A DNA stretch of 64,000 nucleotides from Pseudomonadota bacterium (lineage in GTDB: Bacteria > Pseudomonadota > Gammaproteobacteria > Burkholderiales > Gallionellaceae). A model generated the notes under the pieces. That model searched no databases and was not told where the DNA came from. It saw only the letters and a list, made by a program, of their open reading frames with translations. A program made the position numbers and the translations under genes. The DNA lies in assembly GCA_021800795.1 (NCBI GenBank), contig JAJYYO010000010.1, positions 80 through 64,079 on the forward strand. The letters run 5' to 3'. Numbering within the stretch: the first letter of the stretch is position 1; the number at the start of each line of letters is the position of its first letter. Of this stretch, positions 278-64,000 are shown piece by piece.

Positions 278-2488
278 ATGCCCATCGTTCGTGTCGCGCT
301 TGATGTACCAATTTCCACCCTGTTTGATTACACGGTGGATGAAACTGTTGTAACTGGCATGAGGGTGGTCGTGCCATTTGGACGCCGTCAGATGGTCGGT
401 GTGGTGATGGAATGCGTTGAAAGTTCGGATTTATCGATTGAGCGCATCAAGCCGGTTATGCAGGTTTTGCACGACAGTGCACCGCTGTCGGCCAAACTGC
501 TCGAACTGCTGCAATTTTGCAGCGATTATTATCACTATCCTATCGGGCCAACGGTTTTGTCGGCCTTGCCGACAAGATTGCGTTCCGATAAGCCCATATC
601 GGTGAAACCGGTTCTGAATTATCGCCTGATCGACGGCGCACCGAATATAGACTCTTTACCGAAACGAAAGGTAATTGCGCGACGCATCGTTGAGAAGTTG
701 CACGAACAAATTTGCAGCCTTGCGCAACTTAGAGCCCTGTCTGCGACGGCGGGCGTACAGCTCAAATGGCTGGAAGAGGCAGGCTGGGTCGAGCAATGCG
801 ATGCTTCCCTCCTCCCCCTCGCCAGCGAAGGAGGGGAGAAAATTTCGGCGCATACTTTTGCCAACGCGCATCCGTTGACGAAAGAGCAGCAGCAGGCGGT
901 TGATGCGGTCACCCAGTCTGCGGGTTATGGCTGTTTTTTGCTGCACGGGATTACCGGCAGCGGCAAAACGGAAGTGTATGTGCATCTCATGGATCACATG
1001 TTGCAGCACTGTCCTGAGCATGGTCGAAGGGGAGGCGGCCAGGTGTTGTTGCTGGTGCCTGAGATCAATCTAACGCCGCAACTGGAAGGATATTTCCACA
1101 GCCGGTTTCCGGATGCAGTGCTTGTGAGTTTGCACAGCGGTCTTTCTGAAAACCAGCGTTTGCATAACTGGCAACTTGCGCAGACAGGTTGTGCTCAGAT
1201 CGTGCTGGGTACCCGTCTGTCGGTATTCGCCGAGTTACCGAGGCTTGCGCTCATCATCGTGGATGAGGAGCACGACAGCTCCTTCAAACAGCAGGACGGA
1301 CTGCGTTACTCTGCCAGGGACGTGGCTATCTTTCGTGCAAACCAGAGCGGCGTGCCTATCGTGTTGGGTTCTGCAACCCCTTCACTTGAGAGTTATCACA
1401 ATGCAACGAGCGGGCGTTACCGGATGCTCAAACTGACCGGTCGTGCGCAAGTCGATGCACGCCTGCCAACAGTCGGTTGCATCAATACCAGCCAGTCGAT
1501 ATTGACGGAAGGCATCAGCGAAAAGCTGTTGCGTGAAGTGGGATTGCGTATAGCACGCGGAGAACAAAGCCTGCTGTTCATAAACCGCCGTGGCTATGCG
1601 CCCGTGCTGATGTGCACCGAATGCGGCTGGTTGTCCGATTGCAAGAACTGTGCGGGAAAGATGGTGCTGCATCTCAGGGACAGGCGGTTAAGGTGTCATC
1701 ATTGCGGTTTTCAGCTACGTGTGCCGACTGCATGCCCGGATTGTGGTCATGCTGAATTAAAGCCGGTGGGTAACGGCACGCAACGCGTAGAGAGTGTATT
1801 GCAGGCGCGCTTTCCCGATGCGCGCATCCTGCGGGTGGACAGTGACAGTACGCGCAACAAGCGCGCCTGGCAGAAGATGCGCGAGCAGATTCATGCGAAT
1901 GAAGTCGACATTCTGGTTGGCACACAAATGCTCGCCAAGGGGCACGATTTTCCCGCGCTGACGCTGGTGGGGGTGCTGGACCCTGACAGCGCGTTGTACA
2001 GCAGCGACTTTCGCGCGGCCGAAAAACTGTTCGCCCAGCTGATGCAGGTATCCGGGCGTGCGGGTCGTGCGGATAAGCCGGGCGAAGTGCTGATCCAGAC
2101 AGCCTTTCCAGATCATCCCCTGTTTCGCTGCTTGCAGAGTCACGACTTTGACGGCTGGGCGGCATTGCTGCTGGCCGAGCGGCAGATGGCAGGTTTTCCG
2201 CCGTTCGTATTTCAGGCCATGTTGCGCGCAGAAGGCATGAACGAAGGCGAAGTTTATGCGTACCTGAATCTGGCAAGGCAGGCGGCGCTGAAATTGAAAC
2301 ACCCTGTTGAGATATTCAGTGTCGTTCCCGCATCACTGGCACGCAGGGCTAATCATTTTCGTGCGCAACTGTTGATTCAGGCCACGTCGCGAAAAGCTTT
2401 GCAGCAATTCCTGCGCGCCTGGCATCTGGATGAAATGCCAGCCCGTAAATTGCGCTGCTCGCTGGATGTCGATCCGCTGGAATTCTAA
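278..2488 (+). CDS. priA: primosomal protein N' (replication restart helicase)
   Basis: GITGSGKTEVY, DEEH, CxxC zinc motifs, QVSGRAGR; start taken at MPIVRVALDVP (278). Confidence 0.97.
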   Translation: MPIVRVALDVPISTLFDYTVDETVVTGMRVVVPFGRRQMVGVVMECVESSDLSIERIKPVMQVLHDSAPLSAKLLELLQFCSDYYHYPIGPTVLSALPTRLRSDKPISVKPVLNYRLIDGAPNIDSLPKRKVIARRIVEKLHEQICSLAQLRALSATAGVQLKWLEEAGWVEQCDASLLPLASEGGEKISAHTFANAHPLTKEQQQAVDAVTQSAGYGCFLLHGITGSGKTEVYVHLMDHMLQHCPEHGRRGGGQVLLLVPEINLTPQLEGYFHSRFPDAVLVSLHSGLSENQRLHNWQLAQTGCAQIVLGTRLSVFAELPRLALIIVDEEHDSSFKQQDGLRYSARDVAIFRANQSGVPIVLGSATPSLESYHNATSGRYRMLKLTGRAQVDARLPTVGCINTSQSILTEGISEKLLREVGLRIARGEQSLLFINRRGYAPVLMCTECGWLSDCKNCAGKMVLHLRDRRLRCHHCGFQLRVPTACPDCGHAELKPVGNGTQRVESVLQARFPDARILRVDSDSTRNKRAWQKMREQIHANEVDILVGTQMLAKGHDFPALTLVGVLDPDSALYSSDFRAAEKLFAQLMQVSGRAGRADKPGEVLIQTAFPDHPLFRCLQSHDFDGWAALLLAERQMAGFPPFVFQAMLRAEGMNEGEVYAYLNLARQAALKLKHPVEIFSVVPASLARRANHFRAQLLIQATSRKALQQFLRAWHLDEMPARKLRCSLDVDPLEF
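806..840. repeat. small imperfect palindrome in frame in priA (SLLPLASEGGEK)
   Basis: tccctcctccccctcgccagcgaaggaggggagaa resembles the CCCTCTCCC...GGGAGAGGG cores of the intergenic repeats. Confidence 0.5.
1011..1030 (+). repeat. CCTGAGCTTGTCGAAGG-type repeat half-site in frame in priA (CPEHGRR)
   Basis: gtcctgagcatggtcgaagg matches the arms of the element in recG (12774-12871). Confidence 0.55.
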
Positions 2489-2526
2489 AGCTGCGCCGGC
2501 GTCGTGAAGCGAATAGGAAAATATGA

Positions 2527-2702
2527 TCGCGACTCCTGATTAGCCATAAAGTTCAGCGCGCGTCATTGCGAGGAGCGAAGCGACGTGGCAATCCAGGTGC
2601 TTATATTCAAAATGTCCTTTGACTAACTGGATTGCTTCGCTACGCTCGCAATGACAGCTCATTTTTTTCGCAGCTGAACTTGGTGGCTAATCAGGTCGCG
2701 AC
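2527..2702. mobile_element. nested palindromic MITE-like element (RPE-like core)
   Basis: Outer IR tcgcgac(tc)ctgattagcca..aagttcagc / gctgaactt..tggctaatcaggtcgcga; inner gtcattgcgaggagcgaagcgacgtggcaatcca / tggattgcttcgctacgctcgcaatgac. Confidence 0.8.
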
Positions 2703-5540: not shown

Positions 5541-5566
5541 ATCCTCAATCCTCAATCCTCGATCCT
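5541..5566. repeat. heptamer tandem repeat (ATCCTCA/ATCCTCG)
   Basis: atcctcaatcctcaatcctcgatcct. Confidence 0.8.
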
Positions 5567-5574
5567 GTATTCTC

Positions 5575-7908: not shown

Positions 7909-8107
7909 CTAAGCCATCGCTAGCCTTGCCGGGCCTTGATACTGTGCCACGGTCGCGTCATCAGTCAGCAATGTAATCCCTTCGACCATTGCCTGCGCAA
8001 TCAGCAGCCGGTCGAAGGGGTCTTTGTGTATCGGTGGCAAGACATCAATCGCAACGGTATGCTCACTGAGTATCGGGAGTTCGCAATATCCGTTGTCGAT
8101 CAGCACA
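7909..8107 (-). pseudogene. C-terminal fragment of PIN-domain (VapC-like) toxin
   Basis: LPPIHKDPFDRLLIAQAMVEGITLLTDD; the 5' half is missing and replaced by REP DNA. Confidence 0.8.
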
Positions 8108-8299
8108 GTAGGATGCGGTGACAACCGCATCGCTCACGTCATTCCCCAAGCTGCGTTCATATCGCCACCGCGAACGATGCGGTTGTCACCGCATCCTACG
8201 CCGCATCAACGTACCAACTCCTGTATCTTGCGGTTCGCACCCTGCAGTTTTTTGAACAGCGCCAGCACCGCGAATGATGCGGTTGTCACCGCATCCTAC
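8108..8299. repeat. GTAG-type REP cluster (3 copies)
   Basis: GTAGGATGCGGTGACAACCGCATC at 8108-8131 (+), 8176-8199 (-) and 8276-8299 (-). Confidence 0.9.
8206..8267 (-). pseudogene. displaced duplicate of the last 19 codons of the cNMP-binding protein gene
   Basis: LALFKKLQGANRKIQELVR* versus ...ELIR* at 9084-9145. Confidence 0.85.
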
Positions 8300-8346
8300 C
8301 GGGTTTATATGGCGGTTTTCTTGGTAAAGGGGACGCTACCCTTTTA

Positions 8347-8628
8347 CTATAGCCCCAGCTCACTATGGGAACCGAGCCGCACAAGTCGCATATTGTCGGC
8401 GTCTGGTTTGTGGTAAATCAATACCAGGTCAGGCTTGATGTGGCAGTCGCGGTGATCCTTCCAGTCGCCAGTGAGCGGATGGTCACGAAAACGCGGTTCA
8501 AGAGGTTGATCGTTCGCAAGACAATCTACAACGGGAAACAAGTCATCATCAAGCGAAGAGCGGTGCCGGCCTTTGGCTTCGCGCTTGTAGTCTCGCTTAA
8601 ATTGGCCGGTCCATTCAATCGTCCGCAC
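8347..8628 (-). CDS. yafQ: YafQ-family (RelE superfamily) toxin
   Basis: FKRDYKR, DHPLTGDWKDHRDCHIKPDLVLIY, LVRLGSHSEL. Confidence 0.9.
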   Translation of the reverse strand: MRTIEWTGQFKRDYKREAKGRHRSSLDDDLFPVVDCLANDQPLEPRFRDHPLTGDWKDHRDCHIKPDLVLIYHKPDADNMRLVRLGSHSELGL

Positions 8629-8878
8629 GGAGTGCTTTTTTCAATTCCGCAATACTGTTGGCGCGAGGCAGATTTCCGGCGCGAGCCTCCATCATGGCCG
8701 CAATAGTGACGGCATTGGGAACCAGAGGGTCAAATGGCAGTGCGTGTTCATGTGCAATTCTTGTTAGCAGCATTCGCACTGCATCGGACACAGTGAGACC
8801 CATAGCGGCCAGCACGCTCGCTGCCTCTTCTTTGATGGCTCCATCAATGCGGGTTTGTACCAGTTGGTTTGCAGCCAT
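8615..8878 (-). CDS. dinJ: RelB/DinJ-family antitoxin
   Basis: VQTRIDGAIKEEAASVLAAMGLTVSDAVRMLLTRIAHEHALPFD; overlaps the toxin start. Confidence 0.88.
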   Translation of the reverse strand: MAANQLVQTRIDGAIKEEAASVLAAMGLTVSDAVRMLLTRIAHEHALPFDPLVPNAVTIAAMMEARAGNLPRANSIAELKKALRADD

Positions 8879-8902
8879 GATCACTTCTCCTTGTTAATTT
8901 GA

Positions 8903-8915
8903 ATTACATTGTAAT
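8903..8915. promoter_or_regulatory. palindromic operator upstream of dinJ-yafQ
   Basis: ATTACA-T-TGTAAT. Confidence 0.55.
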
Positions 8916-8985
8916 GCATTGCGAGTGGCAGCACAAACATTGGGACGCAAATTGGGGCGCAATATTGGTAAAGGGGTAAAGCGCG

Positions 8986-9076
8986 GTAGGATGCGGTGAC
9001 AACCGCATCGCTCGCGTCATTCCCCGGTTGAGTTTATATCGCCACCGCGAACGATGCGGTTGTCACCGCATCCTAC
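8986..9076. repeat. inverted REP pair (REPIN-like)
   Basis: Same 24-bp REP at 8986-9009 (+) and 9053-9076 (-); spacer is homologous to the 8108-8199 pair. Confidence 0.9.
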
Positions 9077-9083
9077 TACAGCA

Positions 9084-11209: not shown

Positions 11210-11922
11210 TTCAGGATCGAGGATCGAGGATCGAGGATCGAGGATCGAGCGTGAGGCGGCGCTGTCACACGATCCTCAATCCTCAATCCTAGATTTAATA
11301 TGCCGGGCAAAAACACTTCCGTGACCAGCAGCGGTTTATTGTGCAGATAAAACAGGGATCTGCGCGCCCAAAGCCTGCCAGGCGGATAGGACAATATGCC
11401 AGCTGCGCGCCGGTACAGCGGATGATGCGGGTGCAAGGCCTTGTAATGCAATGGCAGACGGGCAACCATCGGATGCGAGAACAGCAGCGCGCCCAGCGGT
11501 TTGTTGCCAAGGTTGCGCAAACCCTGCCAAGCTCCGCGCAACGCTGTGGCAGCGCAGGCGCTGTGCGCAAATACCACGGGTTGCTTATCGGCGCACAGGA
11601 AAACTTCGCGCGACCAGGCAAGCTGCCTGGTGGCGATCCCCAGCAGTGCCGATTCATCCGGTGCAATGAGCGCCAGGCCGCTCTTCACGTTGCGCACGGA
11701 AAAATGCTCGCAGTGCTGCATAATGCGCTGCGTCAGCGAACCGCGGTCACGCAGCCAGGGCAGCAATTCTGCTCCGGCTCCCAATGTCGCGCTGCTCCAG
11801 AATGTGTCGTTCATGTGAAACTCGCGCAAGCGTTCGTTTGCCTCCTCGCCCTTTGGGAGAGGGTTGGGGTGAGGGAAGCGGGCATCATGGTTTTTATTAT
11901 CAGAGGTTGCATACTTTTTCAT
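11206..11922 (-). CDS. ubiC: chorismate pyruvate-lyase with repeat-derived termini (core may start at 11814)
   Basis: [48 protein letters not shown]. Confidence 0.92.
11214..11290. repeat. inverted heptamer arrays in the ubiC C-terminus
   Basis: (GGATCGA)x5 at 11214-11248 facing gatcctcaatcctcaatcct at 11271-11290. Confidence 0.9.
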
Positions 11923-11930
11923 GCTCGCTA
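11815..11930. mobile_element. family-A element, copy 2 (recG-ubiC junction)
   Basis: gtgaaactcgcgcaagcgttcgtttg...gggagagggttggggtgaggg...attatcag...catgctcgcta; contains the recG stop and an in-frame ATG. Confidence 0.8.
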
Positions 11931-14087
11931 TACGTGCAAATAGTCATGTTTGTTTGCCATCCAGCGATGCAAGTAGCCGCGCGCAGCCTCCGGATAGTCG
12001 CGCAGCAACTGATCGGCGACATCCCTTGCCATGTTCAATAAATCTTCGTCAGTTTCTATATTGGCAAAACGCAACATCGCCATGCCGCTTTGCCGTGCGC
12101 CGAGCAGTTCGCCCGGACCCCGCAATTGTAAGTCCTGTTGGGCAATCGCGAAGCCGTCCGTGTTCTCGAAAATGACTTTCAGGCGTGTACGGGCCAGTTC
12201 GGACAGCGGTTTCTGATAAAGCAGGATGCACAGGCTTTGCGCCGCGCCGCGTCCCACGCGTCCGCGCAACTGATGCAGCTGTGCCAGCCCCATGCGTTCG
12301 GCATGATCGATCACCATCAGGCTGGCATTCGGTACATCCACGCCGACTTCGATGACGGTGGTTGCGACCAGCAACTGGAGTTCGCCGGTCTTGAATGCGG
12401 CCATCACGCGCACCTTTTCGCTGCTGTCCATCTTGCCGTGTACCAGGCCCACGCGCAGTTCGGGGAAAGTCCCGGTGAGCATTTGGTGTGTTTCCAGCGC
12501 ATTTTGCAATTGCAGCACTTCGGATTCGTCGATCAACGGGCACACCCAATAGGCCTGCTGTCCGGTCATGCAGGCGGCGCGCACCCGCTCGAATACCTCG
12601 TCGCGGCGCGCTTCGCTGACCAGTTTGGTAATCACCGGGGTGCGACCCGGCGGCAATTCGTCTATCACCGATACGTCCAGATCGGCGTAATAGCTCATCG
12701 CCAGCGTGCGCGGAATCGGCGTGGCGCTCATCATCAGCTGATGCGGTTCGGCGGATTTAAATTGTTCATCAGGCCGTTCGTGGTGAGCTTGTCGAACCCT
12801 CTGCGCAGTAAATTCATTCCCTTCGACTAGCTCAGGCGGGTGTCCGACCACCAGGTTTATGGGGCGAACGGATTTTTCGGTCTTGCCTTTGGCATGAAGG
12901 GCCAGGCGCTGCTGTACGCCGAACTTGTGCTGCTCGTCCACGATCGCGAGCCCCAGTTTGTGGAAACTGATCTGTTGCTGGAACAGCGCATGCGTGCCGA
13001 TGGCAAGCAGCGTTTCGCCCGATGCGATTTTGTCTGAGGCTACCCGCTTGTCTTTTTTCTTCAGGCTGCCGGACAGCCAGACCGGCGTCACGCCTAGCGG
13101 CGCCAGCCAGTCACCGAGTTTCAGGTAATGCTGCTCGGCCAGAATTTCGGTGGGTGCCATGAAGGCGACCTGATAGCCGTTCTCGATGGCTTGCAAGGCT
13201 GCGAGTGCGGCGACGATGGTCTTGCCGCTGCCCACATCGCCCAGCAGCAGACGTTGCATCGGATGCGGTTTTGCCAGATCGCGGCTGATTTCGCTGAATA
13301 CTTTCTGCTGTGCGCCGGTCAGTTTGAACGGCAGGTTTTTCAGGAGTGCCGCGGTGTAACGGCCCGTCTGTTTGAGAGCAGGCGCCACGCGATTGCTGCG
13401 TTCACGATGATGCACGCGCATCGAGAGTTGCTGGGCCAGCAACTCGTCGAACTTGATGCGTCGCCAGGCGGGATGCGTGCGTTCTTCCAGAGAACTCGCA
13501 GCAATATCCGGCATAGGGTTATGCAGCACATTAAGGCTCTCTGAAAACCCGAGCAAATTCAAGTTGTTGCAAATTTCCTCAGGCAGGTAGTCCGGCGTAG
13601 GCAGCACTTCGAGTGCGTTGGCGATCAGTTTGCGCAACGCGGTTTGCGACAGTCCGGCTGTGGCAGGATATACCGGCGTCAGACTGGTTTGCAACGGTGT
13701 CTCGTCGTTCACCGCACGGCATTTCGGATGCACCATCTCCAGTCCGTAATAACCCATGCGCACCTCGCCGACGGCGCGTATCTGATTATCCACGGCCAGC
13801 AGTTTTGTCTGGCTGGGATAGAAATTAAGAAAGCGCAGATACAGCTCGCCGCTTGCGTCCTGCAGGCGGCAGATCAGCGTGCGGCGCGGGCGGTGGGTAA
13901 TCCCGGCGTGCGTGATGACGCCCTGTACCTGTGCGGTTTCGCCGGGTTCCACGGCCGCAATCGGCGCGAGATGGGTTTCGTCCTCGTAACGGATCGGCAG
14001 ATGCAGCAACAGATCGGCACGATGGTGGATGCCCAGCTTCGCGAGATTCGCCAGCGTGGCAGGAGAGATTTTCGCGGGGGAGGTCAA
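11928..14087 (-). CDS. recG: ATP-dependent DNA helicase RecG
   Basis: GDVGSGKT, DEQH, MSATPIPRT, QLHQLRGRVGRG. Confidence 0.97.
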   Translation of the reverse strand: MTSPAKISPATLANLAKLGIHHRADLLLHLPIRYEDETHLAPIAAVEPGETAQVQGVITHAGITHRPRRTLICRLQDASGELYLRFLNFYPSQTKLLAVDNQIRAVGEVRMGYYGLEMVHPKCRAVNDETPLQTSLTPVYPATAGLSQTALRKLIANALEVLPTPDYLPEEICNNLNLLGFSESLNVLHNPMPDIAASSLEERTHPAWRRIKFDELLAQQLSMRVHHRERSNRVAPALKQTGRYTAALLKNLPFKLTGAQQKVFSEISRDLAKPHPMQRLLLGDVGSGKTIVAALAALQAIENGYQVAFMAPTEILAEQHYLKLGDWLAPLGVTPVWLSGSLKKKDKRVASDKIASGETLLAIGTHALFQQQISFHKLGLAIVDEQHKFGVQQRLALHAKGKTEKSVRPINLVVGHPPELVEGNEFTAQRVRQAHHERPDEQFKSAEPHQLMMSATPIPRTLAMSYYADLDVSVIDELPPGRTPVITKLVSEARRDEVFERVRAACMTGQQAYWVCPLIDESEVLQLQNALETHQMLTGTFPELRVGLVHGKMDSSEKVRVMAAFKTGELQLLVATTVIEVGVDVPNASLMVIDHAERMGLAQLHQLRGRVGRGAAQSLCILLYQKPLSELARTRLKVIFENTDGFAIAQQDLQLRGPGELLGARQSGMAMLRFANIETDEDLLNMARDVADQLLRDYPEAARGYLHRWMANKHDYLHV
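12774..12871. repeat. palindromic element in frame in recG
   Basis: ccgttcgtggtgagcttgtcgaacc...ccttcgactagctcagg...gcgaacgg, read as PELVEG...VRQAHHER. Confidence 0.85.
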
Positions 14088-15071: not shown

Positions 15072-16421
15072 TTATAAAAACCTTGCAATCATGCCTTTAG
15101 ATAAATCGCCCTGCAACGGTATCTGAACTTTATGGCCGCTGCCGGGGGCGGTCGTGATGGATTCGCCCTTTGCGCTTTTCATATTGGAAAGTTCGATGAT
15201 CCGGTTGCCGGAAGGGTGGATGATCTCCAGCCTGTCGCCGACCTGAAACCGGTTTTTCACATCGATCTCCGCATAGCCGCCTGCGCAGGATACGATATCG
15301 CCGACATATTGCTGGCGGGTGCTCTCGGAGTGACCGCGCATATAGTTCTGCTGTTCGTGAGTATGATGTCGCTCGTAAAAACCGTCGGTGTAGCCGCGGT
15401 TCGCCAGCGCATCCAGCGCACCCAGCAGGTTCAAATTGAATGGACGGTTGGCTACCGCATCGTCGATCGCCTGACGATACACCTGAGCGGTGCGCGCAAC
15501 GTAATAGATGGATTTGGTGCGGCCTTCGACTTTCAAGGAATCGATGCCGATCTTTGTCAATCGTTCGACATGTTCCACCGCGCGCAGGTCCTTGGAATTC
15601 ATGATGTAGGTGCCGTGCTCGTCTTCCATCACCGGCATCAGCTCGTCCGGGTGATCCTGGCGCGAGATCACATACACGCGGTCGGCCATCGGATGACGCG
15701 GTTGTCCGCCGCAATCGGACAGCGCGGACTGGCTCAGTGCCTTGTCGAAATCGAAGTCCAGCTTTTCCACATCGCCGGTACCGTTCTCCTCGGCATTGTC
15801 CATCTTGTAATCCCAGCGGCAGGAGTTGGTACAGGTGCCCTGATTGGCATCGCGATGATTGAAGTAACCGGACAGCAGGCAGCGCCCCGAATAGGCGATG
15901 CACAGCGCACCATGCACAAACACTTCGAGTTCCATGTCCGGGCATTGCTGGCGGATTTCCTCGATCTCGTCCAGCGACAACTCGCGCGACAAAATCACGC
16001 GGGTGAGTCCCAGCGACTGCCAGAATTTCACCGCCGCGTAATTGACGGTATTGGCCTGTACGGACAAGTGCACCGGAATTTCCGGCCAGCGTTCGCGCAC
16101 CATTGCGATCAGCCCCGGATCGGCCATGATCAGTGCGTCGGGGCGCATGCTGATCACGGGCTCCATGTCGGCCATGTAAGTCTTCACCTTGGCGTTGTGC
16201 GGCATCAGGTTGCTGGCGACGAACAGTTTCTTGCCCAGCGCATGAGCCTCGGCTATGCCGGTTTGCAATTCTTCGAGCTTGAATTCGTTGTTCCTTGCCC
16301 TGAGTGAATAGCGCGGCTGTCCGGCATACACGGCGTCCGCGCCGAAAGCATAGGCGGCGCGCATCTTGTCCAAGGTGCCTGCCGGCAACAACAGTTCGGG
16401 TGCGCGCAAGGTGTTCATCAA
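15072..16421 (-). CDS. trhP: U32-family tRNA 5-methoxyuridine hydroxylation protein (YegQ/TrhP)
   Basis: PELLLPAG, HGALCIAYSGRCLLSGY, NQGTCTNSCRW, SLKVEGR. Confidence 0.88.
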   Translation of the reverse strand: MMNTLRAPELLLPAGTLDKMRAAYAFGADAVYAGQPRYSLRARNNEFKLEELQTGIAEAHALGKKLFVASNLMPHNAKVKTYMADMEPVISMRPDALIMADPGLIAMVRERWPEIPVHLSVQANTVNYAAVKFWQSLGLTRVILSRELSLDEIEEIRQQCPDMELEVFVHGALCIAYSGRCLLSGYFNHRDANQGTCTNSCRWDYKMDNAEENGTGDVEKLDFDFDKALSQSALSDCGGQPRHPMADRVYVISRQDHPDELMPVMEDEHGTYIMNSKDLRAVEHVERLTKIGIDSLKVEGRTKSIYYVARTAQVYRQAIDDAVANRPFNLNLLGALDALANRGYTDGFYERHHTHEQQNYMRGHSESTRQQYVGDIVSCAGGYAEIDVKNRFQVGDRLEIIHPSGNRIIELSNMKSAKGESITTAPGSGHKVQIPLQGDLSKGMIARFL

Positions 16422-17682: not shown

Positions 17683-17685
17683 GTA

Positions 17686-17757
17686 GGATTGAGGATTGAG
17701 GATTGAGGATTGAGAGAAAACCGGTTGTTTTTATCTCAATCCTCGCTCCTCGATCCT
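17686..17757. repeat. inverted heptamer arrays
   Basis: (GGATTGA)x4 facing ctcaatcctcgctcctcgatcct. Confidence 0.85.
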
Positions 17758-19173: not shown

Positions 19174-19205
19174 AAAAACTCCATTCATTGTGTTGGTTAA
19201 TGAAT

Positions 19206-38334: not shown

Positions 38335-38363
38335 GAGCCTTTTTGCTTTGTGGTGTAAACGAA

Positions 38364-44884: not shown

Positions 44885-45128
44885 AACGTGAAACTCGCGA
44901 AAGCGCTCGATTGTCCGGCTCCGCCCCCCTCGCTACGCTCTCCCCTACGGGAGATAACCAGCGACTTAGGCATCGTTCTCAGATGCCTTAGGCGATGGTT
45001 AGTTGTTCTATCAGGGTTTGGGTGAGGGAGAGCGCAGCGAGGGTGCCCGGGCATGGCAAGTTTGCGAGTTGATGCCCGCAGGGCCGAGAATCTTTACATT
45101 ATTCGGGGTGGCTACTGCCATGCCCGTT
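44885..45128. mobile_element. family-A element, copy 5
   Basis: About 175 bp nearly identical to copy 4, direct orientation. Confidence 0.9.
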
Positions 45129-54313: not shown

Positions 54314-54368
54314 TTCACGCAACAACTTGGGGCATAGCCCCTTAGTTGTGTGGGGAATGCCCTTGCGG
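54314..54368 (+). repeat. family-B 55-bp element, copy 1 (ftsA-ftsZ)
   Basis: ttcacgcaacaacttggggcatagccccttagttgtgtggggaatgcccttgcgg. Confidence 0.9.
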
Positions 54369-55619: not shown

Positions 55620-55740
55620 ATCAGAAGACAGAGGACAGGGGGCAGAGGACAGCCGTCTATTCCCCGTCAGCGCTCCGGTGTCCTTAACTTTTAATATTTT
55701 CATCCCTCAGTCCTCCGATTTCTGTCTTCTTGTCTGACGG
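55620..55740. repeat. inverted heptamer arrays (GACAGAG variant) across the ftsQ 3' end
   Basis: cagaagacagaggacaggggcagaggacag ... cagtcctccgatttctgtcttcttgtctg. Confidence 0.7.
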
Positions 55741-56419: not shown

Positions 56420-57419
56420 GGGCCAGCTCCAGCACACGCAACACCAGTTGCTCGAAGCTGATGCCCGCCTTGCGCGCCGCCATCGGCACCAGGCTGTGAT
56501 CCGTCATGCCGGGCGAGGTGTTCGCTTCCAGCACGTAAGGCTGCCCTGACTCGCTCATCAGAAAGTCCACCCGTCCCCAGCCTTGTCCGCCTATCAAGGC
56601 AAATGCCAGCTTCGCAAGTCTCTGCATTTCCGCTTCCTGAGTCGCAGCCAAACCGCTCGGGCACAGATAACGCGTGTCATCGCGCAGATATTTCGCCTCA
56701 TAGTCATAGAACTCATTGACAGGCTCAATCTTGATGACCGGCAAAGCTTGTTCTCCCAGTATCGCCACGGTGTATTCGCCGCCGCCGATAAAGCGCTCCG
56801 CGATCACCAAAGGGTCGTGCTTCGCAGCGCTCGAATAGGCCGATTGCAATTCGACTGTCGCCTTGACCTTGCTGATGCCGACGCTGGACCCTTCATTGGC
56901 AGGTTTCACGAACAGCGGCAGCCCCAGTTGTTGCACGACGTCGGCACCGTTGCTTTGCTCGGTCAACATCACGAAATCCGGGATAGGCAAGCCACCTGCC
57001 TGCCAGACCAGCTTGCTGCGCCATTTGTCCATGCCCAGCGCGGAAGCCATCACGCCGCTGCCGGTATACGGAATCCCCAGCAACTCCAGCGCCCCCTGTA
57101 CCGTACCGTCTTCACCAAAGCGTCCGTGCAGCGCGATGAAAACGCGATCGAATCCTTCGTCCAGCAGCGCCTGCAAATTTCTCGTGGCCGGATCAAACGC
57201 ATGGGCATCCACACCGCTGCGCTGCAAGGCAGCCAATACCGCGGCGCCGCTTTTAAGCGAAACTTCACGCTCGGCGGAACGACCGCCTAACAGCACCGCA
57301 ACCTTGCCGAAAGAACCAGGATCGAGGATCGAGACCGCAAGGGTCTTCCCCGCACAACTAAGGGGCTGCGCCCCAAGTTGTTGCGTGAAGGATTGAGGAT
57401 TGAGATTCTGGTTATCCAT
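56409..57419 (-). CDS. ddl: D-alanine--D-alanine ligase with repeat-derived N-terminal insert
   Basis: [32 protein letters not shown]. Confidence 0.96.
57335..57389 (-). repeat. family-B 55-bp element, copy 2 (in frame in ddl)
   Basis: Reverse-complement homolog of 54314-54368, flanked by heptamers. Confidence 0.9.
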
Positions 57420-58557
57420 GTTTCGCATACTCGCCGATAATTTTTACTTCAGGGTGCAGCAGCACCCCGGTCTGTTTTTCCACTGTCTCACGCACCAGAA
57501 TGATCAGGTTTTCAATATTTGCCGCCGTGGCGTTGCCGACATTGACAATAAAGTTCGCGTGCTTGTCAGATACCTGCGCACCTCCGATACGTCTGCCTTT
57601 CAGCCCGCACATTTCGATCAGGCGCGCCGCATGATCGCCAGGCGGATTGCGGAACACCGAGCCTGCATTCGGCAAACTCAGCGGCTGGCTCACGATTCGT
57701 TTTGCCAGCAGCTCCTTGATTTGCCTGCGCGCCGTTTCACCATTTCCCTGCTCGAATGAAAGCCATGCGCCGACAAAAAACTCTTCAGAGGAATGAGGAG
57801 CGAGGAACGAGGAATGAGAAAAACCAGCCAATTCCCCGCGATCCTCAATCCTCAGTCCTCGATCCTGAATTCTGGCCACGCTTCTGTAGCCAATTTCGTA
57901 TTCCTGCGGCGTACGCTCGATCAATTCGCCGCTGCGCGTCATCACCTGCACCTTCACCACGTGCTGCCAGGTTTCTCCCCCATAGCATCCCGCGTTCATC
58001 GCCAGCATGCCGCCCAGCGTGCCGGGAATACCGGCAAAGAACTCGGCACCGCTGCGCCCGTGCAAGGCGGCAAAGCGTGCCAGTTTCGCACCCGGCACAC
58101 CGGCCTGTGCGTAGATCAGGCCATCTTCCTGAACGGCCAATTCTTTCAGCGCGCCGTGCAGCAGCAAAACCGAACCACCGACTCCGCCGTCGCGCACCAG
58201 CAGATTGCTGCCCAGCCCGACGACCAGCAAAGGCTCATCGGGTGGCAGGCTGCACAAAAACACCCGCAAATCATCCAGGTCGACAGGCTGATAAAACCGC
58301 GCCGCCATTCCGCCGGCGCGCCAGCTGGTGTGGCGGCTCATGGGCTCGTCGAAACTCAACTTGCCCCGCAAACCAGAGGACAGAGGACGGAGGACGGAGG
58401 ACAGGCGTGTTGTTGCCGCTACGCGGCAATCTATTGATGCAGGCGCAGCAATGCTGCCCACCGCCTCTGTCTTCTGTCTTTCACGCAACAACTCGGGGCT
58501 TAGCCCCTTAGTTGTGCGGGGAAGACCCTTGCGGTCTCTGTTCTCTGTTACGTTCAT
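57412..58557 (-). CDS. murB: UDP-N-acetylmuramate dehydrogenase with two repeat-derived inserts
   Basis: [38 protein letters not shown]; ATG overlaps the murC stop. Confidence 0.95.
57788..57867. repeat. inverted heptamer arrays in frame inside murB
   Basis: gaggaat gaggagc gaggaac gaggaat ... atcctca atcctca gtcctcg atcctg. Confidence 0.85.
58480..58534 (+). repeat. family-B 55-bp element, copy 3 (in frame in murB N-terminus)
   Basis: ttcacgcaacaactcggggcttagccccttagttgtgcggggaagacccttgcgg. Confidence 0.9.
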
Positions 58558-60062
58558 GTCTGCGCCATCTGTTTGATTGCACCCGGCACGTTGCCGATAG
58601 AGCCCGCACCCATGGTCAGCACCACATCGCCGTCCTTTACCAGTTGCAGTATGGTCTTCGGCATGTCGGCAATCTGCTCGACAAATATCGCCTCGCTTTG
58701 TCCCGCCAGTCGCAACGCGTGCATCATTGCGCGGCCATCCGCTGCCACCAGCGGTATCTCTCCTGCCGCATACACTTCCGCCAGCACCAGTACGTCCACG
58801 CCGCACAGGATTTTCACGAAGTCCTCGAAAAGGTCGCGCGTACGGGTATAGCGATGCGGCTGGAATGCCAGCACCAGACGGCGGCCCGGAAACGCGCCGC
58901 GTACCGCCGCCAGCGACGCCGCCATTTCGACCGGGTGATGACCGTAGTCATCGATTAACGTAAAGCTACCTCGTCCGCCAGAGGACGAGGTGACGTTTGC
59001 TCTTTCACCCTCCGGGGGATAACCAGTGACTTGCCCGTTTACGGGCTTAGTCAAATGGCTAGTAGTTTCATCAAAGTTGGATAGAGGGAGCGCAATTTCT
59101 CCGTAGCGCTGGAAACGCCTGCCCACACCCTCGAATTCACCCAGGGCGGCAACAATGGCTTCATCCGCCACGCCGATTTCCAGCCCGATAGCAATGGCAG
59201 CCAGCGCATTCAATACATTATGGTTGCCCGCCAGATTGAGGGTAATGTCGAGATCCTTGGGTGTGCCGTTTTGTCGACATTGCGCGGTAAACAACATCCG
59301 GCCCCCCTGTGGGCGCACGTTTACCGCACGGATCTGCGCCGCCTCGCTGAACCCATAGGTGGTCACCGGCTTGGTGATGCGCGGCAAAATTTCCTGCACA
59401 TGGATGTCGTCCACACACAGCATGGCGCGACCATAGAACGGCAGATGTTCGACGAAATCCACGAAGGCCTGCTTGAGGCGCGAAAAATCATGACCGTAGG
59501 TTTCCATGTGATCCGCATCGATATTGGTAATCACCGCGAGTATCGGTTGCAGATACAAAAAAGACGCATCCGATTCATCTGCTTCCACCACGATGAATTC
59601 TCCGGTGCCGAGCTTGGCATTGGTGCCGCTGCTGTTGAGTTTGCCGCCGATCACGAAGGTCGGGTCAAACCCGCCTCTGGCCAACACGCTGGCAGCCAGC
59701 GAAGTCGTCGTGGTCTTGCCGTGCGTACCGGCGACCGCAATCCCCTGACGCAGACGCAGCAGTTCGGCCAGCATCATCGCGCGCGGCACCACCGGAATAT
59801 GGCGCGTGCGAGCAGCCTGCACTTCCGGATTGTCCTGGCCCACAGCGGTGGATACCACCACGACATCGGCGTTCTTTACATTTTGCTCGTCATGACCGAC
59901 GGATACCGCGGCGCCCAACTGGCTCAGGCGTTTGGTCGCCGCGTTTTCGCTCAGATCAGAACCGCTCACGGCGAATCCCAGATTGAGCAATACCTCGGCA
60001 ATGCCGTTCATCCCCGAGCCGCCGATGCCAACAAAATGGATGTGCTTGATTTTATGTTTCAT
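58554..60062 (-). CDS. murC: UDP-N-acetylmuramate--L-alanine ligase with internal repeat-derived insert
   Basis: [38 protein letters not shown]. Confidence 0.97.
58955..59093. mobile_element. family-A element, copy 7 (degenerate, in frame in murC)
   Basis: ttaacgtaaagct...ccctccgggggataaccagtgactt...atggctagtagtttcatc...gagggagcgc aligns with copies 4 and 5. Confidence 0.75.
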
Positions 60063-61170: not shown

Positions 61171-61258
61171 GGCATTTCTCTGAGATGGGCACATTTCTGC
61201 CGAAGGCAAAAATATGGCCCCCGGTTCCACCTGCCATAATTAAAATGTTTCGGCTCAC
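61163..61258 (-). other. 31-codon mini-ORF: recoded duplicate of the murG N-terminus
   Basis: GTG-start [40 protein letters not shown]; stop lies just inside the murG start. Confidence 0.8.
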
Positions 61259-61282
61259 GAAGCACCTCCTGAGTCAGAGGAA

Positions 61283-61403
61283 TAAGGATTGAGGATTGAG
61301 GATTGAGGATACAAGTCGTTGTGTGCCGCGTCGCGGCACACTTTATCAAAGACGCGGCGCAGCCGCGACAATGCTTCTGTCCTCCGCCCTCTGTACTCTG
61401 TCG
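61283..61403. repeat. heptamer arrays enclosing two small palindromes
   Basis: (GGATTGA)x3; gtgtgccgcgtcgcggcacac; cgcggcgcagccgcg; ttctgtcctccgccctctgtactctgtcg. Confidence 0.75.
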
Positions 61404-61409
61404 CCTGAT

Positions 61410-61588
61410 TCATATTGGCAACCCCCGTGCAATCCTGCGATTTTGGCTACGCCTTAAAGAAAGATTGGAGATTATAATTTTCACAATGGCAAGCAACGGG
61501 CAAGTCGACGGTTTTGGCTGCGCCGAAACAGAAGGTTGGAAATTATTGAATTTCATATTGGCAACCCTCTGGCCAACCTTCTGTTTTC
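61410..61588 (-). repeat. ~72-bp tandem units carrying recoded ftsW C-termini
   Basis: Stops at 61553, 61481 and 61410; [30 protein letters not shown]. Confidence 0.85.
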
Positions 61589-62773
61589 ATAATCCACTCT
61601 GAGCAGCACAGCGGCGGCGATGCAATTGACCACCACGCCACTGCCGCCAAAGCTCAGGAAAGGCAAAGTCAAGCCCTTGGTGGGCAGTACGCCCATATTC
61701 ACGCCGATGTTGATCGTCGCCTGCACGCCTATCCATACGCCGATGCCCTGCGCCACCAGTGCGGAAAAGTTGCGCTCCAAAAACGCGGCGTGACGACCGA
61801 TCTGGAATGCGCGTATCACTACCAGCGCAAACAGCAGAATGACGCAAACCACACCAGCCAGCCCCAGCTCTTCTGCGATGACCGCCATCAAAAAGTCGGT
61901 ATGCGCTTCCGGCAGATAGAACAGTTTCTCCACACTGGCGCCCAGCCCCACGCCGAACCACTCGCCACGACCGAAGGCGATCAGCGCATGACTGAGCTGA
62001 TAACCCTTGCCATACGGGTCTGCCCAGGGGTTCATGAAGCCGATCACACGCTGCATACGGTAGGGCGATGAAAATATCAGTGCGGCAAACGCCAAAGGCA
62101 GCGCCACCAGCAATGCGCCGAACACCTTGACGTTGAAACCGCCCAGCCATAAGGTACAAATGGCGATAGACAAGACCACCACAAACGCGCCCATGTCCGG
62201 TTCCTGCAACAACAAACCGCCTATCACCACCATGACCACGAACATCGGCATAAATGCCCTGATGAACAAATGCGCTACCGCACCCTTGCGCACCGTGTAA
62301 TCGGCGGCATACATCACGGCAAACAGTTTCATCAACTCGGAAGGCTGTAAATTGATCACAAACAGCGACAGCCAGCGGCGGCTGCCGTTCACTTCACGAC
62401 CGATATGCGGGATCAGGACCAGCAGCAGGAGGACTGAGCCTGCCAGAAACAGATAAGGCGCATAGGTCTGCCATAATTGCACCGGCAGCTGAAACGCGAA
62501 CACGCCGGCTATCAGGCCGACGGCGATGAACATGCTGTGGCGCGTCAGATAATAGGTAGCCTGGTGAGCCGTGAACTTGCTGCCCTCGGCGGTGGCGATG
62601 GATGAGGAATACACCATCACCAGCCCGATGGAGAGCAGTGCAATGAATACCCAGATCAGCAGGTTGTCGTACTGAGCCTGCGGCGGCGGGGTTCGCGTCC
62701 GGACAGCGAAAGGGTGGGGGTGCAACCCCCGGGTACCCATCGGCGTACTCCTTGCGGGTGCTAACGAGGCCAT
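61553..62773 (-). CDS. ftsW: peptidoglycan polymerase FtsW
   Basis: [44 protein letters not shown]. Confidence 0.97.
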
Positions 62774-64000
62774 GTCGACTCCTTGGTCAGCTTTCGCACT
62801 TCGGCAATGAAAACTTCGGCGCGGTGCGCGTAATTGCGGTACATGTCGAAACTTGCGCAAGCCGGAGATAACAGCACGGCGTCTCCCGGCAATGCCAGCA
62901 TGGCGGCCTGTCCGACGGCCTCATTCATGTCTTTTGCATGCACCACCGGTACTTCGCAGTCCTGCAACGCCGCCGCTATCTTTGGCGCATCGCGGCCTAT
63001 CAGCACAACTGCGCGTGCGTGTTGAATCACGGCAGACTTTAAGGGGGAAAAATCCTGTTCCTTGCCCACGCCGCCGGCAATCAGCACCGATTTACAACCC
63101 ATGCCTTCCAGTGCGGCGACGGTCGCGCCTACATTGGTTCCCTTGGAGTCGTCATAAAAGCTCACCCCATGCAGTTTTTCGACCAGTTCTACGCGATGCG
63201 GCAAGCCCTTGAAGCTCTTCAAGGCTTCCAGCAATACCGGCATCGGTAAATCAATTGCCCGGCACAAGGCCAGCGCGGCCTGGGCATTGGCAAGATTGTG
63301 CAGCCCGGCGAGTTGCAGTTCGGAGGCCCTGATCAGGCGCCGACTACCCTGCACCAGCCAGATTTCTCCGCCATCTCTTTCAATGCCAAAATCAACTTCA
63401 CGCCCGGGCAGGCCCAGGCCAAAGGTGATGTGGTTGTCGCGCAGCATTGCCATGACGCGCGGGTCGTCCCGGTTCAACACCTGCACGCCGCAATCCTTGA
63501 ATATCCTTTGTTTCGCTGCCGCGTACTCATCCATGTCTGCATAGCGATCCAGATGATCTTCGCTGATGTTCAGCACCGTGGCCGCATCCGCCTTCAAGCT
63601 GAATGTCGTTTCCAGCTGAAAGCTGGACAACTCCAGCACCCATATTTCAGGCTGTTGCTTACCCCGTGCCAGCACCGCATCCAGCACCGCAGGCGATATA
63701 TTGCCCGCCGCCACCGCATCACGGCCCGCTGCCCTGCACAGGTGTTCCACCAGGCTGGTGACGGTCGTCTTGCCGTTCGAGCCGGTAATCGCGATAACAC
63801 GAGGATTGAGGATGGTGGATTGAGGATTGAGTTGTTGCGCGAATAGCTCGATGTCGCCGATCACGGGAATGCCGGCTGCCACAGCACGTGACACGAACGG
63901 GTCGCGCAGCGGCACACCCGGACTGATCGCGATCAGATCGATGCCGGCAAATAATGCATCATTGAATGCCCCGCAAAATACTTGTTCAGGGGAAACCAAT
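62761..64000 (-). CDS. murD: UDP-MurNAc-L-Ala--D-glutamate ligase (5' end outside the window)
   Basis: [43 protein letters not shown]. Confidence 0.96.
63801..63831. repeat. heptamer array in frame in murD ([10 protein letters not shown])
   Basis: gaggattgaggatggtggattgaggattgag immediately before the P-loop strand. Confidence 0.8.

Follow-up and report, generated by a model that had tools for sequence, protein, structure and literature searches.

Cyanobacterial STRR heptanucleotide arrays carry small dispersed repeats nested within them. Tandem heptamers are also found in Beggiatoaceae, as TAACTGA repeats (PMC4679880), and hairpins are targeted by some IS elements and by PATEs, as when IS1397 and ISKpn1 insert into REP loops (PMC1525189). 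REPs themselves are mainly found downstream of ORFs between co-directional genes, where they sometimes supply the stop codon (PMC3733652; for REPIN/RAYT systems, PMC3116915), and in-frame GTAG and CGTC REPs were described in Opitutus, Thauera, Thioalkalivibrio and Xanthomonas, free-living hosts whose genes for replication and repair can contain such copies (Di Nocera et al. 2013, PMC3733652). Rickettsia palindromic elements (RPEs) form several families of small palindromes that have entered unrelated housekeeping genes with the frame kept (Ogata et al. 2000; summaries in PMC10969869 and PMC3733652).

Here, we analyzed a window of 64,000 nucleotides, meaning the whole stretch of DNA under study, from the 3.2-Mb genome (99.99% complete) of a Gallionella, a free-living iron oxidiser. 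Gene identities were taken from NCBIfam profiles, which showed that the gene names first given were correct, and insert limits were set by alignments with about 20-80 relatives; the genome-wide counts below are approximate, since the gene calls came from a crude home-made caller. The original prediction was that at least six repeat families had invaded about ten housekeeping proteins in frame, in the manner of RPEs, and we indeed found repeat copies in open frames at every gene named: PriA, UbiC, RecG, MetF, PBP4/DacB, FtsQ, Ddl, MurB, MurC and MurD (Table 1). At least eight small families are in frame within the window (A, A', B, N, C, E, F and H), and these palindromic insertions keep the frame in single-copy essential genes. 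That such a pattern would be unusual outside endosymbionts is not supported, given the published in-frame REPs of free-living bacteria (Di Nocera et al. 2013, PMC3733652).

Repeat families and their nested design

The main host class consists of hairpins with two arms of tandem heptamers, the units being mainly AGGATTG (family A, AGGATTG/CAATCCT, about 100 tracts or 41 hairpins in the genome), but also CAGAGGA (family A'), AGTCGTT and others. The purine-rich arm stands 5' in 41 hairpins and the reverse order was found in none. Hairpins at dispersed tracts have common ends (CAGGAT...ATCCTG) and a loop-proximal motif (GAGAAAAACC), and their centres are unique sequences. The second host class is family B, a roughly 100-nt element with an 11-letter peptide signature (about 78-89 genomic copies). 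Two mini-elements are nested in these hosts: family N, a 54-nt module (54-60 nt; about 21-24 copies), occupies the B hairpin apex, between ..CCCTCT and CCCGGAGGG.., and in one case that of an F hairpin, while family C, a 55-nt module (about 20 copies), always lies between pyrimidine heptamer tracts, irrespective of their unit. The other families are a CGTC-tagged REP dimer (E, about 65-75 copies), a 'PELVEG..' palindrome (F), a 270-bp MITE with terminal inverted repeats of about 30 bp (H) and GTAG-tagged REP pairs (D), of which 10/10 copies are intergenic.

Like the RPEs as summarised in the sources above, each family encodes a conserved peptide, occupies fold-compatible sites and also has copies between genes. 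Compared with what those summaries describe, the host is a free-living chemolithotroph and not an obligately intracellular species; its elements, of 54-110 nt versus about 100-150 nt, are shorter and have no sequence relation to RPEs, and they show tandem heptamer arms, mostly intercistronic copies and empty-site alleles that indicate current activity.

Family E matches CGTC REPs (8-bp stem, 4-nt loop, head-to-head dimers; PMC3733652) and encodes 'VIPAQAGIQ' or 'RHSGAGRNP' in its 5-6 in-frame copies; family D is a GTAG REP and, as in REPIN/RAYT systems (PMC3116915), flanks a RAYT gene outside the window. Y1 transposases of RAYT-like type are encoded by two intact genes in this genome, next to additional Y1 fragments. 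In contrast to intragenic GTAG REPs, however, the GTAG family is never intragenic in this genome, and families A, B, C, N and F, which account for most in-frame cases, lack both the GTAG or CGTC tags and an identified transposase; no transposase could be tied to A, B, C or N.

With STRR arrays and TAACTGA repeats, the heptamer families share tandem 7-nt units concentrated in intergenic DNA adjoining start or stop codons, and with STRR arrays also tiny stem-loop modules, tens of nucleotides long, nested in other repeats. They differ in having inverted hairpin arms of fixed order placed past stop codons and not before starts, lineage-specific units and many copies in frame inside essential genes. 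Lastly, families C and N recall the hairpin-targeting IS elements and PATEs (IS1397/ISKpn1 and the Y1-transposase elements IS200/IS605): they enter the hairpin or tract of another repeat at a set point, without obvious target duplication, they are hairpins themselves, and the genome has Y1/HUH transposase genes. Unlike such IS elements and PATEs, they are only 54-60 nt long and encode nothing, and their link to a transposase is only a candidate one.

Table 1. Repeat copies and reference genes in the window
Feature	Position	Strand	Remarks
PriA mini-palindrome, CTCCTCCCCC..GGAGGGGAG, peptide 'SLLPLASEGGEK'	806..850	+	short, degenerate B-core-like remnant
PriA 8-aa insert 'CPEHGRRG'	1007..1036	+	half of family F, CCTGAGCATGGTCGAAGGG vs CCTGAGCTTGTCGAAGGG
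CAATCCT heptamer tract	5541..5573		intergenic, upstream of pilin-like gene
GTAG REP pairs (family D)	8102..9076		intergenic; same type as RAYT-flanking REPs
UbiA	10349-11209		gene, NCBIfam
UbiC C-terminus, heptamer-armed hairpin	11212..11291	-	last 22 codons; +22 aa
recG/ubiC junction, family B	11801..11928	-	open frame upstream of ubiC
RecG, family F palindrome	12762..12875	-	about 30 extra aa, between helicase motifs II and III
MetF C-terminus, family B	16409..16508	-	26-aa extension
Heptamer hairpin	17685..17757		directly after ahcY stop codon, outside CDS; typical intercistronic
AhcY	17761-19188		gene, NCBIfam
DacB/PBP4	24049-25860		gene, NCBIfam
DacB, family E (CGTC REP dimer)	25439..25566	-	open frame upstream of signal peptide
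DacB, family H (270-bp MITE)	25583..25853	-	90 stop-free codons in dacB frame
Family C copy	54314..54368		ftsA/ftsZ spacer, intergenic
FtsQ, CAGAAGA/CAGAGGA heptamer hairpin	55623..55730	-	spans ftsQ stop codon
Ddl N-terminus, family C (57335-57389)	57304..57404	-	between direct CAATCCT/CGATCCT tracts; +25 aa
MurB internal heptamer-armed hairpin	57782..57873	-	24 extra aa vs orthologs (28-letter peptide)
MurB N-terminal insert	58374..58534	-	about 50 aa following conserved start MNxxE
CAGAGGA hairpin of MurB N-terminus	58374-58480	-	hairpin part common to relative G009
Family C in MurB N-terminus	58480-58534	-	adjoins CAGAGGA hairpin
MurC, family B with N module (59019-59072)	58968..59090	-	N at B apex; about 35 extra aa
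AGGATTG tract	61278..61321		expanded ftsW/murG spacer
MurD, CAATCCT-type tract	63795..63831	-	10-aa peptide; loop length as in orthologs

Inserts within protein frames

Alignments with orthologs showed extra residues in MurB (two inserts), MurC, RecG, the Ddl N-terminus and the C-termini of UbiC and MetF, while the MurD loop kept its length. Surface loops had been expected for the inserts, and AlphaFold models of MurB and MurC place them in loops predicted to be disordered: pLDDT drops below 50 only in the inserts, at residues 1-59 and 235-257 of MurB (the latter between two strands) and 329-362 of MurC. In RecG, the NCBIfam profiles split at 413/444, and the F palindrome is also found in the metagenome strains of runs X4 and X9.

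The MurB loop, ancestrally 10 aa long according to the ortholog alignment, holds an insert or remnant in 13/13 Gallionella-clade rows and, among the 38 rows of the Sideroxydans/Sideroxyarcus clade, in 8 scattered ones, and the heptamer units used are of six kinds; three Gallionella rows have decaying remnants (inserts of 12, 13 and 19 aa). The MurC loop received B-type inserts in at least five lineages, and true insertions occur in the MurD loop of relatives G016 and G013. In PriA, where the first site has about 5-7 extra residues compared to most orthologs and the run X4 strain shares the remnant, larger repeats occupy that position in relatives G010 and G008, and the second insert is common to G009 and missing from the other 18 orthologs. 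Thus, the same loops have been struck repeatedly in different lineages.

It is very unlikely that most of these in-frame cases are illusions of annotation, with stop-free UTR or spacer DNA ahead of true downstream starts, and with the internally hit genes being decaying pseudogenes. The claim that frames are kept as protein does weaken at several N-termini, which may be untranslated: the family B element upstream of UbiC can be bypassed, as the conserved start position behind it holds an ATG (11814), and the DacB leader is uncertain, as the signal peptide could not function with 165 residues ahead of it, the frame being open for 165 codons across E and H. Stop codons are intrinsically scarce in MITE H, whose dacB-type frame is open in 10/11 genomic copies that are mostly intergenic, so that an open dacB frame through H needs no selection, and Di Nocera et al. 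give a like caution on N-terminal REPs (PMC3733652). However, the MurB, MurC and RecG inserts have conserved catalytic segments on both sides, in genes that lack a second copy (murB is single-copy), leaving no bypass. Neither does Ddl have a usable start past its element: its ATG overlaps the murB stop, its profile begins at residue 36-39, and from the element onward to the conserved FGKVAVL the only ATG, GTG or TTG found is a GTG that belongs to the conserved strand. In UbiC, where the stop is shifted, and in MetF (whose profile stops at residue 274-277 of 304), the extensions reach stop codons that keep the overlap with the next gene, an ATGA with ubiA in the case of UbiC, and flanking sequences are highly conserved in a nearly complete genome. 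RNA evidence is thin and consists of one metatranscriptome contig (run X28) that extends into the first arm of the MurB hairpin, together with some contigs of doubtful RNA origin. The weaker cases are MurD, FtsQ (whose last 9-10 or so residues come from the first hairpin arm, with a similar tail in G016 and G010), PriA (both sites being short, decayed remnants) and the N-termini of UbiC and DacB.

Placement at gene junctions

Most copies are intercistronic. When in-frame and intergenic copies were counted genome-wide, those inside coding sequences turned out to be a minority, about 13% of elements against 54% expected at random. Heptamer hairpins outside genes lie between co-directional genes in 32/33 cases, at a median of 2 nt from the stop codon and about 22 nt from the next start, and no T-run was found at these intergenic hairpins. 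Because hairpins begin about 2 nt past the stop codon, overlapping junctions absorb them into a frame; in tight operons, whose genes abut or overlap, every insertion must land in the frame of one neighbour or the other. Copies at such sites keep both an open frame and stop/start coupling, and they extend a protein at its N- or C-terminus (Ddl, MurB N-terminus, UbiC, MetF, FtsQ and probably DacB), while a minority of elements lies within permissive enzyme loops (MurB, MurC, RecG, MurD and PriA). A concentration in cell-wall genes, as first suggested, was not found, since the families are also in frame in LeuRS, MetRS, ValRS, AroA, DnaE, PurL and others genome-wide; the dcw cluster is just a long, packed operon with many overlapping junctions, and the elements favour junctions.

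As with STRR arrays and TAACTGA repeats, heptamer copies inside ORFs are constrained because forward arrays close all three frames. The arms in coding sequences carry AGGATCG or AGGACTG exactly where AGGATTG would give an in-frame TGA (in the UbiC arm, as judged by reading the sequence), and in-CDS hairpins have 2-4 open frames compared to mostly 0-2 for intergenic ones.

Such strict intercistronic placement and the genus-wide MurB hairpin could mean that the hairpins are functional RNA structures instead of neutral selfish DNA. They would then be selected mainly as operon RNA or DNA structures (3'-end protectors, RNase processing sites or modulators of translation coupling), and the in-CDS copies would be functional too, tuning segmental mRNA stability or ribosome traffic within long operons such as dcw. 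Besides the stereotyped position, which is 2 nt past stops and shortly before the ribosome-binding site that follows, with co-directional genes on both sides in nearly every case, this would fit the fixed arm order, the strong predicted folding of the MurB-loop hairpin (-27 to -56 kcal/mol) in all Gallionella-clade genomes despite complete sequence change, and the UbiC arms, which by inspection of their letters pair better as RNA, with G-U pairs, than as DNA. Yet folding energy is no evidence of function, as palindromes fold well by construction, the MurB hairpin is missing from most Sideroxydans relatives and decays in three Gallionella rows, loops and units are not conserved, and presence varies among near-identical strains. 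We find a mainly functional role quite improbable.

Recent mobility and a possible origin

Four elements are exactly missing in near-identical metagenome strains, indicating recent movement and supporting the activity suggested earlier. MurC lacks exactly the N module (59019-59072) in alleles from DNA runs X5 and X9 as well as from runs X25 and X27; the recG/ubiC family B element is replaced by 'TTTT' in runs X4 and X5, and the one at the metF end by 13 nt in run X9; MITE H at dacB is precisely absent in run X5. Larger changes were also seen: 123 nt replaces 25348-25902 in runs X4 and X9, so that E and H are both missing, and 21 nt replaces the ftsW/murG spacer (61149-61417) in near-identical strains. 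For heptamer hairpins, we found no clean whole-element presence/absence allele, only this larger replaced segment and a one-heptamer (7-nt) deletion allele of the UbiC arm at 11213 in run X4.

Heptamer palindromes may alternatively have been written in place instead of being transposed: slippage would expand a 7-nt seed and intrastrand template switching would make the inverted arm, with local seeds and tolerance explaining loop recurrence and a common mutational bias explaining lineage-specific families. The UbiC indel would fit this, as would the many units sharing one architecture, both within the genome and at one orthologous site, the unique hairpin centres and the fact that neither terminal duplications nor a cognate transposase came to light. 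The MurD tract overlays its loop without any gain in length, for which in-place rewriting fits better than insertion. Against this stand the presence of one unit at about 100 dispersed tracts with common ends and a loop-proximal motif, which exceeds mutational bias, the multi-copy and lineage-specific nature of unit families (CCTTTCA is multi-locus in G006 and G002 only), the absence of a conserved heptamer seed at empty MurB sites, and the behaviour of families B, C, N and H, which are clearly inserted as discrete units, their empty sites being exact. Altogether, we consider in-place writing unlikely.

What we find probable is a nested community of very small non-autonomous hairpin repeats. 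These would spread by a hairpin- or ssDNA-directed mechanism, for which the Y1/HUH transposases of the genome are candidates, and replication slippage may additionally remodel the heptamer arms. Inserts would be translated as disordered, nearly neutral segments, and selection would purge the other genic copies, so that only those with open frames are seen.

In-frame hairpin repeats are thus Rickettsia-like and already known. New are the designs of the elements, namely the heptamer-armed architecture and two nested mini-elements targeting hairpins, the repeated colonisation of the same protein loops and the fact that the elements were caught while still mobile, and the phenomenon extends across the whole genome and the whole family.

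Repeat families and their genomic census

The genome carrying the window (3.195 Mb, 63 contigs, 55% GC) has Gallionella, Sideroxydans and Sideroxyarcus metagenome-assembled genomes as its nearest public relatives. Direct and inverted repeat searches, together with a census of 16-mers occurring at least 4 times, detected ~740 repeat loci genome-wide, corresponding to roughly 1.5% of the genome; a 12-mer census was dropped, being too noisy. Single-linkage clustering was abandoned as well, as the nested, mosaic nature of the elements made it fuse 708 loci into a single cluster, and families were delimited by seed-based searches instead. BLAST copy numbers were ~78-89 for B, ~65-75 for E, ~30 for H, ~21-24 for N, ~20 for C and ~10 for D, and family A comprised 41 complete hairpins and ~100 tracts above chance in the whole genome. 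A separate 127-nt sequence is common to twelve contig ends, including positions 1-45 of the window, and probably marks the terminus of an IS whose many copies break the assembly.

Genes, repeat families and neighboring features (window positions unless a contig of the same genome, C9 to C47, is named)
Feature	Position	Strand	Basis or description
PriA	278-2488	+	NCBIfam
Family D pairs		8108-8199 and 8986-9076		GTAGGATGCGGTGACAACCGCATC
Duplicated 160-bp block	8108-9145		GTAG REP pair + neighbor gene 3' end
UbiA	10349-11209	-	NCBIfam
UbiC	11206-11814/11922	-	NCBIfam
RecG	11928-14087	-	NCBIfam
MetF	16418-17332	-	NCBIfam
AhcY	17761-19188	-	NCBIfam
PBP4/DacB	24049-25860	-	NCBIfam
Family E inverted pair	25440-25566
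MITE H	25583-25853
89-nt direct repeat	31094-31182 and 38261-38349		tRNA 3' end + terminator-like hairpin
179-nt composite repeat	40249-40427 and 44885-45063		B-like end + N-like hairpin
MurB	57412-58557	-	ortholog alignments
MurC	58554-60062	-	ortholog alignments
ftsW/murG spacer	61146-61593
FtsQ, Ddl, MurD			NCBIfam
LeuRS gene	C9:80975-82232
MFS-type transporter	C11:3038-4589
RAYT-like ORF	C27:11653
CRISPR-like array	C47:29720 onward		~34 copies of CGGTTCATCCCCACGCCTGTGGGGAACAC, ~61-nt spacing
Family A			(AGGATTG)n-loop-(CAATCCT)n; hairpin arms are tandem heptamers
Family A'			A-type design, units CAGAGGA/CAGAAGA
Family B			about 100 nt
Family N			54-60 nt
Family C			55 nt
Family D			GTAG REP
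Family E			CGTC REP
Family F			palindrome of 'PELVEG...FDKL' type
Family H			270-bp MITE; further MITE-like units also in window
Window cases at gene junctions (n=7)			murC/murB, murB/ddl, ftsQ/ftsA, ubiC/ubiA, recG/ubiC, metF/next gene, bioA/dacB

In-frame inserts and their tolerance

Since repeat families had been proposed to sit in frame in about ten housekeeping proteins, each of these proteins was aligned with 20-80 orthologs. These alignments delimited extra residues in MurB, MurC, RecG, Ddl, MetF and the C-terminus of UbiC, confirming that in-frame repeats are real. The single-copy murB gene contains three elements: the loop that follows GYR(S/H)V, which is ancestrally 10 aa long, reaches 34 aa through a heptamer hairpin of 72-84 nt, and ~50 residues corresponding to a CAGAGGA hairpin and a C element are added behind the conserved MNxxE start. 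In MurC, 38 aa encoded by a B element with an N element nested inside replace a 3-aa turn ('PxG'), and an F palindrome gives RecG ~30 additional aa between motifs II and III. Other inserts are terminal: a B element adds 26 aa to the C-terminus of MetF, and a hairpin adds 22 aa to that of UbiC, where the relocated stop preserves the ATGA overlap with ubiA. The last ~9 aa of FtsQ, a tail common to two relatives, are encoded by the first arm of a hairpin straddling the stop codon. PriA carries a mini-palindrome of 45 nt and a half-F remnant of 8 aa, both of which are old and degenerate. MurD falls under a refuting condition named with the original prediction, as its heptamer tract lies in a loop of the same length as in orthologs; true inserts are found at that loop in two relatives.

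Bypass by alternative starts, another possibility raised with the original prediction, may apply to some of these genes. At the N-terminus of UbiC, a B element follows the recG stop and precedes an ATG that occupies the conserved start position, and translation of this element is therefore not required. The start ATG of Ddl overlaps the murB stop and is followed by a CAATCCT tract, a C element and a CGATCCT tract (25 aa added in total), and no usable start was found 3' of the element. In DacB, the original start and the n-region of the signal peptide are replaced by an E dimer and MITE H; 165 stop-free codons extend to an ATG overlapping the bioA stop, and no canonical start was found close to the hydrophobic core. 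The frame of MITE H used by dacB is stop-free in 10 of its 11 full-length copies (88-100% identity), although the remaining ten copies are intergenic, and two further frames are often open as well. H may have arisen from an ORF, or its sequence may have been shaped to permit read-through.

When the inserts were mapped on AlphaFold2 models built with ortholog alignments, as had been suggested, the protein cores were confidently modeled, with pLDDT <50 confined to the inserts in MurB (residues 1-59 and 235-257, the latter between strands 228-230 and 260-267) and MurC (residues 329-362, between strands 318-324 and 366-372). The coding copies also differ in their open frames: three consecutive AGGATTG units put a TGA in all three frames, and in MurB and UbiC precisely the unit that would otherwise give an in-frame TGA reads AGGATCG or AGGACTG. 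Out of six frames, 2-4 are open in hairpins located inside coding sequences, compared to mostly 0-2 in intergenic hairpins. A metatranscriptome contig passes from the murB coding sequence into a hairpin arm.

Removal of inserts at the RNA level, which would undermine the original prediction, was rejected for the N module: MurC without this 54-nt module (59019-59072) was found in two DNA runs and in two further runs, and the N-less form is thus an allele rather than a product of RNA processing. Other exact alternatives were read from public-metagenome contigs of near-identical strains, discounting joints with short sides or undefined intervening sequence as cross-matches among repeat copies. 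In such strains, 'TTTT' replaces 11801-11928 at the recG/ubiC junction, 13 nt replace 16409-16508 at the end of metF and the UbiC arm is one heptamer shorter. One strain has dacB without MITE H (net 270 nt), and two others have it without both E and H (123 nt versus 555). The ftsW/murG spacer is ~400 nt longer here than in near-identical strains; in three sequencing runs (X4, X5 and X9), 21 nt stand for 267 nt and 7 nt for 150 nt. Within this spacer lie a heptamer tract and gene termini that are present in duplicate.

Junction preference, recurrence and nesting

Intergenic A hairpins are found almost exclusively between co-directional genes (32/33 versus a baseline of 80%, p = 0.006). They begin a median of 2 nt past the upstream stop codon, which often lies inside the first unit, and they end a median of ~22 nt ahead of the next start, directly before the ribosome-binding site; no T-run was found after them. 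Since hairpins prefer junctions and many gene pairs abut or overlap (~28% of co-directional pairs), seven of the window cases lie at junctions, and an element entering an overlapping junction would necessarily be read as part of one of the two neighboring genes.

Elements internal to coding sequences are depleted (~13% observed versus 54% expected under random placement). A first screen for internal inserts also took conserved protein motifs (MCP, P-loop, GGDEF), which were excluded by requiring family membership, and 14-nt 'A' matches were discounted as chance. The final count was ~41 robust internal in-frame copies genome-wide (14 A, 14 B, 2 B+N, 5 E, 5 N and 1 F); as several window cases are absent from this screen, the true in-frame number exceeds 41. 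Each family contributes its own peptides: nearly all B copies in coding sequences encode 'PHPNPLPxGEGxNE', E copies encode 'VIPAQAGIQ' or 'RHSGAGRNP', and A copies encode 'LRIEDRG' or 'ILNPQSS'. A special concentration in cell-wall genes, as originally put forward, does not hold, given that in-frame hosts genome-wide include LeuRS (three inserts), MetRS, ValRS, AroA (two), DnaE and PurL; the apparent concentration results from operon architecture. The three separate LeuRS elements are an A hairpin, a GGGAAGA-type hairpin and a B+N composite, and an MFS-type transporter has a ~45-aa N-terminal extension from CAATCCT-type tracts ('PQSSIPNSRASIPAPQSSILNPQS').

The same loops are occupied repeatedly within the family. 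In an 81-row MurB tree, the loop insert or a decayed remnant was present in 13/13 rows of the Gallionella clade, and the insert was scattered over 8 of the 38 rows of the Sideroxydans/Sideroxyarcus clade. At least six units were found in this loop (GAGGATT, GTGAAAC, AAGTGGA, GGATTTn, GGGATAC and GGGAAGA), always with the purine arm first, and the MurC turn repeatedly holds B-type inserts, in at least 5 lineages. A GTGAAAG/CCTTTCA unit occupies multiple loci in two relatives' genomes (G006 and G002) and none in 14 others. The recurrence may stem from repeated insertions, from transfer of alleles or from rewriting in place. A TCCTC/GAGGA seed palindrome at the empty MurB site was dropped as a candidate, being found in one relative only.

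The smallest modules are themselves nested. Every C copy has a pyrimidine heptamer tract on both sides, whatever the unit, with three different units observed (..caatcc-C-tctcaatcc.., ..tctgtct-C-tctctg.. and ..ctccct-C-tctctccc..). N sits at the B hairpin apex, between ..CCCTCACCCCAACCCTCT and CCCGGAGGGAGAGGG.., and in one case at an F hairpin apex; its flanks are fixed (..CCCTCT on the left, CCCGG.. on the right), with an empty-site ambiguity of at most 1 nt. No element with a gene in its loop, such as an IVSp-like gene, was found in this genome. The two copies of the 179-nt composite repeat, which are 97% identical, flank a 4.5-kb gene block.

Relation to known elements and significance

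The analogy with Rickettsia palindromic elements (RPEs) proved apt, as these are palindromic families with in-frame copies in functional ORFs, each family encoding its own peptide; unlike for RPEs, the host is Gallionella and not a member of the Rickettsiales. We take the units and consensus sequences to differ from those of RPE-1..10, the elements being presumably an RPE analogue rather than a member. In-frame RPEs have been summarised for Rickettsia [PMC10969869], and in-frame GTAG/CGTC REPs, including in replication and repair genes, are described in free-living bacteria, with a translation caveat for N-terminal copies [PMC3733652].

A 5' GTAG tag, a short imperfect palindrome and inverted pairs, which define GTAG REPs, were found in family D only, and not in A, B, C, N or F. 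The 160-bp block that includes a D pair occurs twice, 878 bp apart, with two small ORFs in between. The genome encodes two intact 182-aa RAYT-like Y1 transposases (PF01797 matches) in addition to IS200-like fragments, and one of the 182-aa ORFs is bracketed by D-type GTAG REPs (GATGCGGTTCG..CATCCTAC). These transposases are candidate machinery, their REP flanking concerning the D-type family only. Family E, with its (G)CGTCATTCCCGC-GCAG-GCGGGAATCCAG structure and 5-6 of ~65-75 copies in frame, matches CGTC REPs, which are characterized by a CGTC tag, an 8-9 bp stem, a 4-5 nt loop, head-to-head dimers and no dedicated transposase (Di Nocera 2013). Family H has the properties of a MITE (a non-coding, multi-copy unit of 70-300 bp with terminal inverted repeats): it is 270 bp long, ends in GCTAGGAGCCTGTCGGACTTCTTTCGCGAG / CTCGCGAAAGAAGTCCGACAGGCTCCTAG, has 11 full copies out of ~30, and is exactly missing in run X5, where 1 nt lies between the flanks; the CTAG at both of its ends may be a duplicated target.

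Tandem heptanucleotide arrays with nested small stem-loop modules resemble cyanobacterial STRR/SDR repeats, a likeness of architecture only, and Beggiatoaceae as well as cyanobacteria are known to carry heptamer arrays beside start and stop codons [PMC4679880]. PATEs of the IS200/IS605 type have subterminal hairpins, are mobilised by a Y1 TnpA and insert on the 3' side of a short, specific target without duplicating it; N, with its fixed flanks, may be comparable. Our literature search found no description of heptamer-armed hairpins, nor of these elements in Gallionellaceae. Among larger features, the 89-nt direct repeats bracket a ~7.2 kb segment that looks like an element integrated at a tRNA gene.

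RPE-like in-frame insertion is already known, and what is added here are empty sites that vary among strains, mini-modules that seek out hairpins and nest in them, and repeated colonisation of particular protein loops. A broader reading, which we regard as speculative and rather unlikely, is that heptamer-armed hairpins would form an undescribed, widespread class of self-propagating intercistronic element, whose arms would be continually rewritten by a hairpin-directed or replication-coupled process. The hairpins would serve as landing pads for the even smaller C and N, and this three-tier nested system would keep writing new disordered peptides into the same permissive loops of essential enzymes. 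Continual arm rewriting would then account for units at orthologous sites being lineage-specific.

To our knowledge, what moves very small repeats is a question that has stood since REPs and SDRs were described, and the heptamer-armed design, together with C and N, offers good candidates for finding the responsible enzyme or process. Junction targeting explains the many terminal extensions in tightly packed operons, and it calls for practical caution when start and stop codons are annotated in Gallionellaceae metagenome-assembled genomes. Dozens of hairpin insertions, presumed to be translated, appear to be tolerated in essential enzymes of a free-living iron oxidiser, and filled and empty sites still segregate in nature, so that insertion, fitness cost and peptide birth are directly testable.
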